A stretch of DNA of 64,000 nt from contig MU058059.1 in assembly GCA_013265495.1 (NCBI GenBank), forward strand, positions 1,426,001-1,490,000, given 5' to 3'. The translations under genes and the position numbers were made by a program. A model generated the notes under the pieces. It searched no databases, was not told the origin of the DNA, and saw only the letters and a list, made by a program, of their open reading frames with translations. This stretch comes from Vicugna vicugna. Taxonomy: Eukaryota. This document shows positions 10,708 to 63,784 of this stretch, in pieces (the stretch's first letter is position 1; each line of letters starts with the position of its first letter).

Positions 10708-10818
10708 CTTTATTCTTTGGTCATCGACATCCACAATCGTAGCAACACGGATTAACCTGGGGTTTCGTTTATCCACAACTTCAAGTTTCATATTCGGGAG
10801 AAAACCACGGGGCAACCG
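10708..10818 (-). CDS. L3MBTL4: L3MBTL4 coding exon 10: RLPRGFLPNMKLEVVDKRNPRLIRVATIVDVDDQRIK (MBT3 core); gene continues beyond the left edge
   Basis: 111 nt; ttacAG acceptor, GTACAC donor; visible in ORF 10615..10854; I did not find the next expected exon (VHFDGWD...) in 1-10707. Confidence 0.96.
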
Positions 10819-12831: not shown

Positions 12832-12917
12832 CATTTTAAAAACTCGGGCAGGAACTGCATAAGTTTGAGTAGCTTCCAGATATTCTGTCCAGGAAAATTT
12901 TTCTGGATCAGGATAAC
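12832..12917 (-). CDS. L3MBTL4: L3MBTL4 coding exon 9: (G)YPDPEKFSWTEYLEATQTYAVPARVFKM (MBT3 arm)
   Basis: 86 nt; tttttcAG acceptor, GTAAG donor; phase 1->0; FSWxEYL motif. Confidence 0.97.
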
Positions 12918-17770: not shown

Positions 17771-18328
17771 TAAAACAGTAAAATTCCAGAATTATTCCAA
17801 TTAAAAGGTTAAACACCTGCTCCATGCCAGAATGGCATATTCCTTAGTCTACATTTCTTCCTGTGCACTAAGCTGGCTCGGTGAAGGGGCCTGGCAATCT
17901 GGCCTCTCCCTATGAAATTCTCACTTCTTAGGTCTCCACGTTTCTTACATTTAACTCCAAAGTTAAGTGAATTTAATAATCTCATGGCCAATTACTGAAT
18001 TAACTATAAGTTACAAGGTAAGTTACATGGGTGGAAATGGCTGGATTTACAGGTCAGTTCACAGTGACTGCACTCATTTCACCAGATAAAAGAAAAATAA
18101 GCAATTTTTTAAAGTGGGTGCCTAATGTCTTTAAAAACACAGTCCATTTTCATTATGGGGAAGGATGTGCAGATTTCAGACATCTGGGTCACCCAGTGGT
18201 CAACAGAATCTTGCACAATATCTTGATCAGATACTTTGTACTGCAACGTGGTTTGCACCAACAAGAGTAAGATCAGGCATCGCCAATCCCAGAGACAGCT
18301 TCAAAGAAGACCCAGCCAGGCCACTCAC

Positions 18329-18405
18329 CTTGAGGGGCTACCAGAGTTCTCCCATTCTCCTGACACCAACCAACTGGCTGGATGTAAGGACTATTTACAT
18401 CACAC
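18329..18405 (-). CDS. L3MBTL4: L3MBTL4 coding exon 8: (W)CDVNSPYIQPVGWCQENGRTLVAPQ+G
   Basis: 77 nt; ttttgcAG acceptor, GTGAG donor; phase 2->1; visible in ORF 18273..18461. Confidence 0.97.
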
Positions 18406-19407
18406 CTGCAAAAACAGGATTCTCTTTTAGATCCCAAATTAACTCCAGAGAAAGAATCCAACAGTAATGATCATTCTGGATATTAAAAGATGCCATGGAA
18501 AAATATTACTTTGGAGCTAAAATATTTTATAGCTCGAGAGAATGAGAAGTAATTTTAGTACTTTATTTTGTAAGCTGAGGGGCCAAACTTCTCTTTTACG
18601 TAAGCTTCATGAAATTTAAAAGGAATTTTATACAAAGTGTTTGACTAGGGCCTGAACTGCCAGCGGTCTCCCCAAAGAGTGCACATTTTAATGAGCCCCG
18701 TCTATCACTTCTTGCCGGCGGCAAGGGAAAATATTAACAGGCCAGTCCAGATTTTAACAGGACAGACCAGATTCCATCTGCCGACAGTTTCCTCCCTCTC
18801 CTTTTCCAGGACCCCAGACGATTCTCCCGAAGACACGTACAGCACTTCATCGACACCCTGCTTCTTGGTTCAGAGAAGAAAACAGCCCCCGCCTCGCACG
18901 GGAAGACCCACAGCCCTGGCCGGACCTGCCCATTATTCAGGACCTGCTCTCCAGAAATGCCACAAAAATTACTTTCGCCACGCCCTCATCTGTATTTCAG
19001 GTTTTTCACCCAGAAAGCCCTTTAAAAGCATGCAATGTTAGCTCAATGGCATTATAAGCACACATTTTCTCTGCTCTCCACAAGTTTTCGAACAATTCAC
19101 TCCATTCTCCCTGAATCTTCCTTTCTTAAAAATATGCCAGTCTGAGTTTCACATTTTTCAGGGAAAAAAAAATACTGCAAGTTGTTAACTTCCTCCTCCT
19201 TACAAACCACCCACAGCAGAGTGAAGGGCCCAGGGCGGGACACACTGTCTCGGATGAGGCCTTGTTAGGTGACCTCGCAGAGAGCGGCTCCCGAGGGAGT
19301 GCGGCCGGGCAGGTCAGCCGCCGGAGTCCTGCCGGTCGTTCCTAGGAGGACCGCGGCTCCTAACACCAAACACGCGCGCGGAAGGAAGGCGCACAGGGCC
19401 GTCTCAC

Positions 19408-19562
19408 CAGTAACTGTGACTGTCATCCCAGCTGTCAAAATGCACCAGCAAGCGGTCTTCAGCAACATCTGCGATGGTCGCCACGCACACCAAGGAGGGG
19501 TTCCTCCTGTCTACGGCCTCCAGCTTCATCCCAACCTCAAGGTCTTTAGGCGCCGGACCGCT
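19408..19562 (-). CDS. L3MBTL4: L3MBTL4 coding exon 7: SGPAPKDLEVGMKLEAVDRRNPSLVCVATIADVAEDRLLVHFDSWDDSHSY(W) (MBT2 core)
   Basis: 155 nt; tgttAG acceptor, GTGAG donor; phase 0->2; GMKLEAVD..NP..CVAT..HFD.W motif. Confidence 0.97.
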
Positions 19563-20975
19563 CTAACACAGCACCGGGGGGAGGCACCAAGAGAACCAGG
19601 GCTGAGCCACGGGCACAACGTCTGTGACGTTCATTCAGCATCAGGAAGGTCTGCAGGGGAGCAACACTCACCCCGCAGAACAAAGCCGGCCGGGAAAATA
19701 CTCCAACAGACCGGCACCAAGTGTACGTTCATTCAACAAAAAAGAAAAACACTTTGTGCTTTTTCTCTTTTGTCCTGCAGGCAGGTTTCATTTTCCTTAT
19801 CACTGTCATTTTTCCCTCTTCATGTCTTAAGAGTATTAAGAGTCATTTGTATGAGTTTTAAAATACTGCGCTGACTGAATACAGTGGTAGCAGATCACTT
19901 TCTCTGCTCCCTGCAGGCTTTTGATATGTGGTATATTTTCAAATACCACTATTTGGAAAACTAGCAAAGACATGCTCTTCAGCACTAAAATTATCATTTA
20001 CTTTGACCAGAGCTGAAATTAGCGGCTTTCTAAATATTTCTGAAAAACACATGCACTAATCCATGAATAAATCATAGTCAAAAAAAACCAAATGGTTGTT
20101 TTAGTGCCCACACGTTGTTTTTAGTATTTAAGAATGCCAAGGACTATGATTTACAGTTACATTAAAGTGATAAAACCCTAAGCCTCGTACAGCTGTAATT
20201 AGCCAGTCCTGGACTTAGAAAGCACACGTGCAGTATCTGGGGGCTGGAAGGGGGCCATCCTACTTCTTTACTGTCTCTGCTGACCCTGACTTTTGTGTTC
20301 CTTTAGCACATTACATTTTTAAAAGCATTTTCACATTTCCATAACTCTCTTTCCTTAATATAATTCTATGAAACCCGTTGAACAGTTTGTGTAACATTGA
20401 TTTCAAGAGCAGGACACTGAAGCCTGGAGAAGTGGGGGACTGTCCTAAACACGGACACAGCCAGCAGGCGGCAAAGCCCCCACCCTGGTGCGTGGCCCCA
20501 CGGGGCCCAGAGAGGCCGGGCTGCGACCTCCTCTCTTCTCTCCTGTTAGATGCTGAGACACGGATCCTCATACACCCCTGAATCTGTCGGAAAGGTCACC
20601 CTCATGTTCATCATACACAAATACCACTGGACCAGGTACATTCAAAGTTTACCTGGGGTGTCAACTGGTCTCAAAACACCAAAACTCAGCTTAAACAACT
20701 AACTCACTAGCTGCAAAAAGAAAACATTCTAAAAGGCATTTTAAATTATAGCAGGCTTTAAATGTAAAGTTTTTTCCTCCCTCCATCTCATTAAAGTACT
20801 TAATTGTATGTTTAAAGGGGGAAAAAAGTTCATAGGAAACTGACAAATTCAGTGAGAAAAGTCACAGGAAGCTAAGGATTCTTAAAAGATTAAAATACAA
20901 GAGAATATACAGGGAATTATTTAAAATTTAAGCTGAAGTAAACATCTGACTAATACCAAGGAAGAAAATACTTAC

Positions 20976-21067
20976 AGAACTTCTGTTTCTGAATAATCTC
21001 TTGGGAGCATTTTGCAATTTGCAGGCCTTCAAGTAATCCACCCAACCGAATTTATCTTTTCTATAAC
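20976..21067 (-). CDS. L3MBTL4: L3MBTL4 coding exon 6: (G)YRKDKFGWVDYLKACKLQNAPKRLFRNRSS (MBT2 arm)
   Basis: 92 nt; tttttttAG acceptor, GTAAG donor; phase 1->0; FxWxDYL...AP motif. Confidence 0.97.
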
Positions 21068-22700
21068 CTAAAAAAAATACTGATTACTCAAAATACCCCC
21101 AAGATGTAACCACATGAATAATAAACATATTATTCTTATTCGATCTTCTGCCATAAATTCGATGTCCTTTAGCAGACACAAAAGACTCAAATTAAAATCT
21201 CTAAACTGTTTCAATGTTTTGAATGTATGGAATTGAAACCACTGAGAGTAATTTCCCGCCGGGCATGTCATTCCCGACAAATGTTAAAAGCCATTCAAAT
21301 GCAGCACCAGTGCCCAGGTAGCCTGAGGGGATCCTTGCCTCCTGTTAAGGCTTTGGACAGAGGGAAGGGACAACAGTCCCTACGGCCCTCATTCCCCTCA
21401 AAGAAGCTGTGTCACTGAGACCAGCGTGGGCCCTGGTGGTGACCAGGGAGCCAGACACTGGGGACAGAACGAGCCATGGGCCATGTGGCAACTCCAGCTC
21501 CGTGTCCTGCCAGGCTCCGCAGGACAGAACGCCTCACCCTCCCACCCACGTGCCCACGGCTCGGATGGGGCTGGCCCACATCAACGGGCTCGAGAAACAT
21601 TCCCGATGGAGTGTCCCACTCAGAACACCGCCTTCAAGGCCACAGTGGCACCTCTAACTTCCCCTCCTAACTGCCCGCCCTGGCCTCTGCTCCGCCACCC
21701 TCAACTCCCTGTGGTCCGCCCAGCACCCGTCAGATGTCCTGTCTCAGGCCTCTTTCAGCGCCCTTCCTGCTGGTGCAGCCCTGGGACCCCGCTCAGTCCT
21801 CCAGCCCTATCGCTGTAGACGCTGGCAGCTCTGTGTCTCCTCCCCGTCTCTGCAACAGATGCTCCATGAGGACAGATTCGGTTTACTGAATGCACAGCTC
21901 TACCCACAGTGCCTGCACACGGTTAGGACTCCCTACTGAGTGATCCAGCCCGTGGCCTCTCACCAGCCTCCGTGAAACCCAGTGATCTCAGGGGATCTCA
22001 AAGGACCCCCCACTCCCCGACCTAGTTACTAAGAATAAAATGACTATATACTGACTCCAGAAGCTGCCACGGTCACCCGGGAGCCTGATATCCAAGCAGG
22101 AGACCTTATACAAAGGTTTGCTGGACAAGGAAACCGGCCCACTGGCCTCAGTATGCCGCCAACCATCCCTGCGACCAGCACACAGCAAGTAAGAAGGGAC
22201 TCAATCCCATCTGCCAGACCCCGGTTCCTCTTGTGCAAAATAAAAGACAAAGATGAGATTTTAATTCCCATCAAAAGAAAATGGCGACATTTTCTCTTCG
22301 ATAGCTCCCTGTTCTCCATGATTCCTCTTCAAAAAAATTGTACATGTGAACCAAGCTTCCTCACTGTACAGCATTACTGATTCAGTGAAAAACATTATTT
22401 CAACTGTAATTTAAACATTAGTTTCTTCATTCCTTATAAAGTTTAATAAACTTTATATGTAAAATAAAATCTCTCATAAGATTTTAATTTTTCTCTATGT
22501 AACCTGAGAATATTTGACCTCAACAGTCATCGATGCTTTTCTTTTAAAGATATTTATTCATTTCTAAAAATGGAATCCTTGCAGTCTTAATGCTTTTTGT
22601 GGATCACACTTTCATCTTGAAAATCAATTCACACCAGGCTCTCGTGTCAGTATCTTATAAAACATTGTTCAGATGAAACTGTCTTCCCATCCCGGCTCAC

Positions 22701-22836
22701 CCTTAGGGATGTGTAATTCGTGCTTGGTCTTTTCACACCAGCCTACTGGATGGATGTCAGGGGAACCAGCGTTGATCCAAAAATCATAGCAGCTTAAATA
22801 ACCATCAAAATGAAGCCTTAGACGGTAACCACATAC
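22701..22836 (-). CDS. L3MBTL4: L3MBTL4 coding exon 5: VCGYRLRLHFDGYLSCYDFWINAGSPDIHPVGWCEKTKHELHIPK+G (MBT1)
   Basis: 136 nt; ttttgcAG acceptor, GTGAG donor; HFDG..YDFW..SPDIHPVGWC MBT motif. Confidence 0.97.
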
Positions 22837-23880: not shown

Positions 23881-23985
23881 CTCAGCTACAGAAAGCACAC
23901 AAAACACAGATGGATGTCGGGGGTCAACACCTTCTAATCTCATTCCAACCTGAAAGCCATTTTCATGCTCCGGGAAGGACTGGTC
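23881..23985 (-). CDS. L3MBTL4: L3MBTL4 coding exon 4: DQSFPEHENGFQVGMRLEGVDPRHPSVFCVLSVAE (MBT1)
   Basis: 105 nt; cacAG acceptor, GTAAG donor; GFxxGMxLExxD MBT core motif. Confidence 0.97.
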
Positions 23986-35386: not shown

Positions 35387-35478
35387 CTTGGAAAACAGCT
35401 CCACGGGCGCGGCCACCGCCTCCTGCTCCTGCAGGTACTGCTCCCAGGACCAGGCTTCCCGCGCGGCTGCCGTGGGGG
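35387..35478 (-). CDS. L3MBTL4: L3MBTL4 coding exon 3: (A)PTAAAREAWSWEQYLQEQEAVAAPVELFSK, start of MBT1
   Basis: 92 nt; ttgcAG acceptor, GTGAG donor; phase 1->0; WSWxxYL MBT arm motif; visible inside ORF 35366..35596. Confidence 0.96.
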
Positions 35479-53279: not shown

Positions 53280-53334
53280 CGTGACTCAAGGGGGTCCCAC
53301 CATCCCTGGGCTTCTTCTCTTCTCCAGCTTGCTC
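53280..53334 (-). CDS. L3MBTL4: L3MBTL4 coding exon 2: EQAGEEKKPRDGGTPLSH+G
   Basis: 55 nt; acceptor ctAG (53336-53335), donor GTAAT (from 53279); phase 0->1; matches recalled human EQAEEEKKPKDSTTPLSH; too short for the ORF track. Confidence 0.93.
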
Positions 53335-63681: not shown

Positions 63682-63753
63682 CAAACATCCATCCAGGTCC
63701 AAACGCTCTCTGGAATCCGTATTAAGCTTCCTCTTCCTGCTGGGCTGTTTCAT
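63682..63753 (-). CDS. L3MBTL4: L3MBTL4 first coding exon (CDS part): MKQPSRKRKLNTDSRERLDLDGCL
   Basis: ATG at 63753-63751 in gccATG context; 72 nt, phase 0; donor GTAAG at 63681-63677; closely matches the recalled human L3MBTL4 N-terminus MKQPNRKRKLNMDSKERLDQDGRL. Confidence 0.95.
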
Positions 63754-63784
63754 GGCCATGTGAGCACTCCTTAGCAGTGTTTTT
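63754..63784 (-). other. L3MBTL4: 5' UTR part of the first coding exon (31 nt)
   Basis: Acceptor ttttgcAG with AG at 63786-63785, implying further upstream non-coding exon(s) outside the window. Confidence 0.7.

Follow-up and report, generated by a model that had tools for sequence, protein, structure and literature searches.

A histidine shared by camelids in the second MBT cage of L3MBTL4, a pocket that appears to have been eroded repeatedly in mammals

The locus analyzed here raises the question of whether a histidine found in the vicuña, where the second MBT repeat (MBT2) of L3MBTL4 should carry the tyrosine of its methyl-lysine aromatic cage, is a real and old substitution, how it came to be fixed, and what it would mean for the pocket. 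A first-pass annotation of the window (the whole 64,000-nucleotide stretch of Vicugna vicugna contig MU058059.1 that was analyzed) had proposed that the cage Tyr and the conserved Asp following it are both replaced, and that the reader pocket may be weakened or altered in this lineage while the reading frame and all splice sites remain intact. Our data indicate that the camelid cage change is real, old and common to camelids, and comparison with orthologous proteins shows that it is not unique in kind.

On the minus strand of the window, L3MBTL4 runs from its ATG at 63753 to 10708 in ten coding exons, which give 327 stop-free codons when joined with the alpaca protein as a guide. These are exon 1 (63682..63753), exon 2 (53280..53334), exon 3 with the MBT1 arm (35387..35478; GC3 0.90), exons 4 and 5 with the MBT1 core (23881..23985, bearing the cage Asp94 and an open-type Cys102 gate, and 22701..22836, in which F118/Y121/Y125 are intact), exon 6 with the MBT2 arm (20976..21067), exon 7 with the MBT2 beta core, residues 185-236 (19408..19562), exon 8 with the end of the MBT2 core (18329..18405), exon 9 with the MBT3 arm (12832..12917) and exon 10 with the first half of the MBT3 core (10708..10818). 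The donors are GT in 10/10 cases and the acceptors AG in 9/9, and across the ten exons in the window we found none of the marks of a pseudogene, be it a stop, a frameshift or a disrupted splice site. The earlier statement that frame and splice sites are intact holds for residues 1-327, the 5' part of the gene that the window covers; exons after coding exon 10 were not found within it. An in-frame ATG at 63757-63759, two codons upstream, is used by the alpaca annotations, in which the numbering is higher by two (His235), and a second AG lies two bases downstream of the exon-7 acceptor (window 19560-19566), use of which would shift the frame. Of 24 sequencing runs listed, 14 share at least half of the words of 18200-21200 and three RNA-recorded runs share part of them, an overlap that we do not use to support the codons or to argue for expression.

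The peptide of exon 7 (19562-19408, minus strand) reads ...EAVD...HFDSWDDSHSYW and forms an MBT core with D202/F226/W229/H233/S234. It matches the Pfam MBT family (E 2.9e-17) and is closest to repeat 2 of L3MBTL1 (i-E 8.8e-19, compared to 2.7e-7 for repeat 1 and 2.5e-11 for repeat 3). The residue numbers first proposed, counted from the ATG at 63753, were reproduced in the joined 327-codon frame, and the minus strand carries the codons described, with CAC for His233 at the cage-Tyr position (19416..19418) and AGT for Ser234 in place of Asp (19413..19415). The human L3MBTL4 motif given in the first-pass annotation is the one present in the human sequence, from which the vicuña departs by His for the cage Tyr and Ser for the following Asp; an Asp occupies the position equivalent to 234 in 1097 of the 1113 repeat matches among the fetched proteins. 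Both D355 of L3MBTL1, seen in PMC3229088 and in the fold-search output, and the remaining cage residues of its MBT2, given in the first-pass annotation as F379/W382/Y386 (numbers not found in the searched literature), had served as the reference for the vicuña cage. In the window, the methylammonium-binding acid Asp202 (19509..19511, minus strand), 24 residues before the cage Phe, the cage floor Phe226 (19437..19439, minus strand) and the cage wall Trp229 (19428..19430, minus strand) are intact, and the +24/+3/+4 spacing agrees with the published residues of the binding repeats in L3MBTL2 (D546/F570/W573/Y577), MBTD1 (D502/F526/W529/Y533; PMC2747274) and dSfmbt (D917/F941/W944/Y948; PMC2693881). 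The rim residues N205/L208/C210 are also intact and provide a small Cys gate and a Leu wall, with no blocking Arg or bulky residue, which is the arrangement prescribed by the gate rule in the accessible text of two reports (PMC2693881; PMC2747274). It is the third aromatic wall that differs, as known binders have Tyr or Phe at this position and the window has His233.

The window protein is an L3MBTL4 orthologue, its best match being annotated as L3MBTL4 and the camelids grouping with whales (support 98). Alpaca L3MBTL4 consists of three MBT repeats, a C2HC finger and a SAM domain (Pfam), of which the window spans residues 1-327. The exon-7 peptide is 100% identical to that of alpaca (XP_031546086.1 / XP_072805323.1), and a His-bearing L3MBTL4 sequence is thus already in public annotation (alpaca RefSeq). 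Over 327 residues, the window shows 2 and 3 differences to the two alpaca annotations and 12 and 13 to those of dromedary, both of which read HFDSWDDSHDYW and contain His233. The vicuña codons are those of the assembly, in which an assembly or consensus error could have produced the His and Ser; however, the identical peptide in two alpaca annotations and the His in two dromedary annotations make an error very unlikely, and the two other residues at which the window differs from alpaca show that it is not a copy of those records. We regard the chance of such an error as negligible. Further variation includes residue 251, which is Gln in the window (the general mammalian state) and Arg in alpaca and dromedary (exon 8), residue 294, which is Arg in the window and His in alpaca (exon 10), Cys263 in one alpaca annotation, and V100G, G332S and H335Q in the dromedary annotations, with R314H in one of them.

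Orca, minke and sperm whale (3/3) keep Tyr-Asp at 233-234, and of the 51 species compared below only alpaca shares Ser234 with the window. Together with the dromedary His, this pattern would place Tyr233His, a T-to-C change, on the camelid stem, fixed before the split of South American camelids and Old World camels, and Asp234Ser, which requires two base changes, afterwards on the South American side, as far as these few species indicate. The literature searched, without most subscription papers, contained nothing about how the L3MBTL4 cage has evolved, about L3MBTL4 in camelids or about a cage mutant with His for Tyr.

Whether other mammals have altered the same cage was assessed with one protein each for 51 mammals, drawn from 301 fetched proteins and excluding isoforms, fragments, most models labelled LOW QUALITY (manatee, Hipposideros), marmoset, Mastomys, Phodopus and others, with the dromedary kept. 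The MBT2 cage is canonical in 39/51 and altered in 12/51, comprising two camelids and 10 of the 12 rodents, and the cage residues of MBT1 and MBT3 are unchanged in 51/51. With the cage columns left out of tree building, the minimum number of changes mapped among 49 placentals was 0 in the cage of repeat 1, 9 in that of repeat 2 and 0 in that of repeat 3, compared to 39, 85 and 98, respectively, at non-cage sites (Fisher p 2.4e-4). The assumption that the site is conserved among orthologues is borne out in the 37 non-rodent placentals, where the camelid His is the sole cage change and Tyr is present in 35, but fails in rodents. Mouse has W to L and rat F to S, so that neither laboratory rodent is canonical (residues 225-236); kangaroo rat and gopher have W to R, jerboa Y to C, and hamster and deer mouse Y to L. 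Beyond the set of 51, the MBT2 cage shows W to S in golden hamster, W to C in Mastomys, W to G in Neotoma, F to L in California mouse and Y to F in one marmoset annotation, and the manatee and dugong models, both LOW QUALITY, are without the cage Tyr and have a one-residue gap, possibly a shared break. Exceptions in repeat 1 were also seen beyond this set, with His in the cage of Phodopus and Asn for Asp in dugong and a goat fragment, sequences which look like those of decaying genes. The Phodopus protein has degenerate repeats 1 and 3 and no match to the MBT2 motif, possibly through gene decay.

The recurrence pattern rests on the rodents, and outside them the chosen set contains the camelid change only. 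The residues that have come in (H, C, L, R, S, G) are of unrelated chemistry, which fits decay; rodent Y-to-F changes are not losses, since Tyr-to-Phe leaves dSfmbt binding unchanged in the part of the study available (PMC2693881). Taken together, the shared camelid change and the wear in many rodents look more like the decay of a dispensable pocket than like a camelid innovation. The proposal of a weakened pocket is plausible; the suggestion that it is special to this lineage is not supported, as His also occurs in dromedary and the same cage has been eroded repeatedly in rodents.

Camelid L3MBTL4 has evolved fast, at 0.094 vs 0.041 substitutions per site since the camelid-whale split in the MBT region, and over residues 25-596 at 0.116 on the camelid stem vs 0.039, whales being a slow comparison. 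With lynx as outgroup, the unique changes of alpaca and minke stand at 10:2 in exon 7 (p 0.039), 22:10 in all MBT repeats (p 0.05) and 23:6 in the C-terminal part (p 0.002); the dromedary relative rate for exon 7 is 8:2, which is not significant (p 0.11). The 43 camelid-shared differences, scored against the majority state in 24 slow-evolving mammals, comprise 28 AT-to-GC, 6 GC-to-AT and 9 neutral, ambiguous or multi-step changes, compared to an AT-to-GC:GC-to-AT ratio of 220:193 in 19 other groups pooled (p 0.001), which share history and are not independent. A similar skew is found in whales (13:4), cricetids (17:5) and the gerbil Psammomys (31:10). Exon 7 holds 7 of the 15 camelid-shared MBT changes (p 0.007 by length, 0.06 vs other lineages); these mostly AT-to-GC neighbors of the His codon had been overlooked in the first-pass annotation. 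In a comparison of window exons with each other, GC3 is 33/49 in exon 7 vs 68/194 in the other MBT exons (p 7e-5), and GC at fourfold sites is 14/22 vs 27/82 (p 0.013). A GC/CpG-rich intron patch lies directly downstream of exon 7 (19108..19407; GC 0.57, 19 CpG per 300 bases vs a window mean of 6). Exon 3 (35387-35478) and its flanks form a second GC/CpG-rich patch, with 11 CpG per 300 bases on each side. A non-synonymous AT-to-GC excess is thus found together with high silent-site GC, the combination expected of GC-biased gene conversion, a process that can fix amino-acid changes and mimic selection according to the sections accessible of PMC6636035, and the exon-7 cluster would most simply be ascribed to it.

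The explanation that we favor as probable is relaxed constraint on the L3MBTL4 MBT2 pocket combined with GC-biased fixation, leaving weakened binding. His233 would then have been fixed because selection on this pocket is weak in mammals, as one of a local AT-to-GC cluster, and the 3xMBT fold would persist with an MBT2 pocket down one of its three electron-rich walls. Adaptive retuning, through altered specificity or lowered L3MBTL4 activity in, for example, vascular or blood-pressure control, could also account for the replacement of two neighboring residues, of which the second took two base changes, and over-expression of L3MBTL4 raises rat blood pressure in the available portion of one study (PMC4969609). 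However, skew and clustering are an outcome of gene conversion that is known to mimic selection (PMC6636035, as far as accessible), rodents show parallel unrelated losses, a phenotype link is absent, and the first change in the Asp codon would be at a CpG. We therefore consider positive selection highly improbable. We also weighed a connection with camel salt tolerance but set it aside for want of evidence.

In alpaca L3MBTL4, AlphaFold models most of the repeats with confidence (blocks 84-96, one linker 58), and a fold search with this model matched structures of L3MBTL3 and L3MBTL1 (E 2.6e-48, TM 0.86), which points to an intact fold and is silent on affinity. Histidine is smaller and less electron-rich than tyrosine and can be protonated, and from this chemistry we infer that the His233 pocket probably binds mono- and dimethyl-lysine more weakly. 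Counter-points are that His is itself aromatic and that D202, F226, W229 and the rim are intact. Indeed, His233 might be tolerated as a near-neutral change, with the pocket reading Kme1/2 with little loss. The remaining cage and rim residues would allow this, the predicted model has the same confidence near the site (85) as in the same loop of MBT1, and Phe is accepted at the Tyr wall, dSfmbt binding being unchanged by it in the text available (PMC2693881; also PMC3229088). African killifish l3mbtl1b has His at the MBT2 wall in 6/6 Nothobranchius records printed and in Iconisemion, an independent Tyr-to-His change at the same wall, and its retention across these species fits tolerance. On the other hand, the Tyr is kept in 35/37 non-rodent placentals and the MBT2 cage is canonical in 39/39 L3MBTL1-type proteins (sequences, not species), the neighboring conserved Asp was lost afterwards, and the same wall is His in repeat 1 of these proteins (38/39), a non-binder in L3MBTL1, although there a bulky gate residue blocks entry too (PMC2693881, in the part available). 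Tolerance with little loss of binding is unlikely in our view. Human L3MBTL4 is implied to bind methyl-lysine by its use in an AlphaScreen panel (PMC3229088, accessible text), and its repeat 3 carries a blocking Arg by the rule given in the available part of PMC2747274. The searched literature did not identify the repeat of human L3MBTL4 that binds methyl-lysine and held no binding measurement for a His-bearing L3MBTL4 pocket.

Decay could extend from the pocket to the gene, in which case the whole of L3MBTL4 would be turning into a pseudogene in camelids and His would be an early neutral hit. Both dromedary models, like those of manatee and dugong, bear the LOW QUALITY label, which marks a corrected model, and these labels suggest that L3MBTL4 is dispensable in some mammals; the dromedary models contain no X, and the site of the correction behind the label was not located. 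Moreover, no other Camelus species is present among 10/10 cluster members, the acceleration reaches the C-terminal part, and a decayed goat fragment exists, a 114-aa piece of L3MBTL4 MBT1 that may be what remains of a gene lost in ruminants or may be a processed copy. Apart from this fragment, L3MBTL4 of ruminants, pig or horse was not named among the best 120 matches per protein search or the 15 of 177 members listed for the main cluster. Against this, the alpaca models are full length and free of the LOW QUALITY label, the window preserves 327 codons and 19 splice sites without a break, alpaca differs at 12/238 conserved MBT columns (median of 51 species 5), and at 0 of the 63 conserved MBT1 columns of which 14 are changed in the goat fragment. 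Camelid L3MBTL4 is not visibly dying in this lineage, and we judge the pseudogene explanation improbable, leaving relaxed constraint on the MBT2 pocket as the preferred reading.

A further, rather doubtful possibility is that the working reader pocket of mammalian L3MBTL4 is repeat 1 and not the textbook repeat 2. The repeat-1 cage D94/F118/Y121/Y125, with its open Cys gate, is unchanged in 51/51 mammals, and a complete pocket was predicted in L3MBTL4 repeat 1 in 2009 (PMC2673432, in which the Supplementary Figure 2 alignment bears on this claim; seen in part), whereas losses of the repeat-2 cage are numerous (camelids, mouse, rat, gophers, jerboa, sirenians). Arguing against a swap, the cage residues of the non-binding L3MBTL1 repeats are conserved too, and L3MBTL4 repeat 1 bears Tyr instead of Trp and His instead of Asn. 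If such a swap were true, the camelid His233 would be one of a natural series marking it within the L3MBTL family. For camelid biology alone the change has little import unless a phenotype is found, and the repeat-specific recurrent erosion, mouse and rat included, outweighs the His itself in interest. L3MBTL4 is linked to hypertension and breast cancer, and as mouse and rat are without a canonical MBT2 cage, rodent studies may be uninformative on how the human protein reads methyl-lysine. With the natural series His, Cys, Leu, Arg, Ser and Gly, a test of which pocket L3MBTL4 needs, if it needs one, is ready to hand.

The pattern in camelids resembles that of changes fixed by gene conversion (PMC6636035, available sections), which likewise show clustered AT-to-GC replacements, high GC3 and a GC-rich flank, a likeness drawn from protein differences and window DNA. 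Compared to the 3xMBT readers L3MBTL1 and L3MBTL3 (PDB 2PQW, 2RHI, 3UT1, 4FL6), with 62% identity over the three repeats, camelid L3MBTL4 keeps the repeat-2 Asp, Phe, Trp and open Cys gate, but replaces the cage Tyr by His and the adjacent Asp by Ser; the repeat-2 cage, invariant in L3MBTL1 (39/39), is the variable one in L3MBTL4. Non-binding repeats (L3MBTL1 1 and 3, dSfmbt 1-3, SFMBT1/2) likewise combine an incomplete cage with an intact fold, and L3MBTL1 repeat 1 has His at the same wall as His233. Elsewhere, however, the degenerate repeats are ancient secondary ones beside a working repeat, whereas in camelid L3MBTL4 it is the repeat expected to work, with its gate open, that carries the altered cage.
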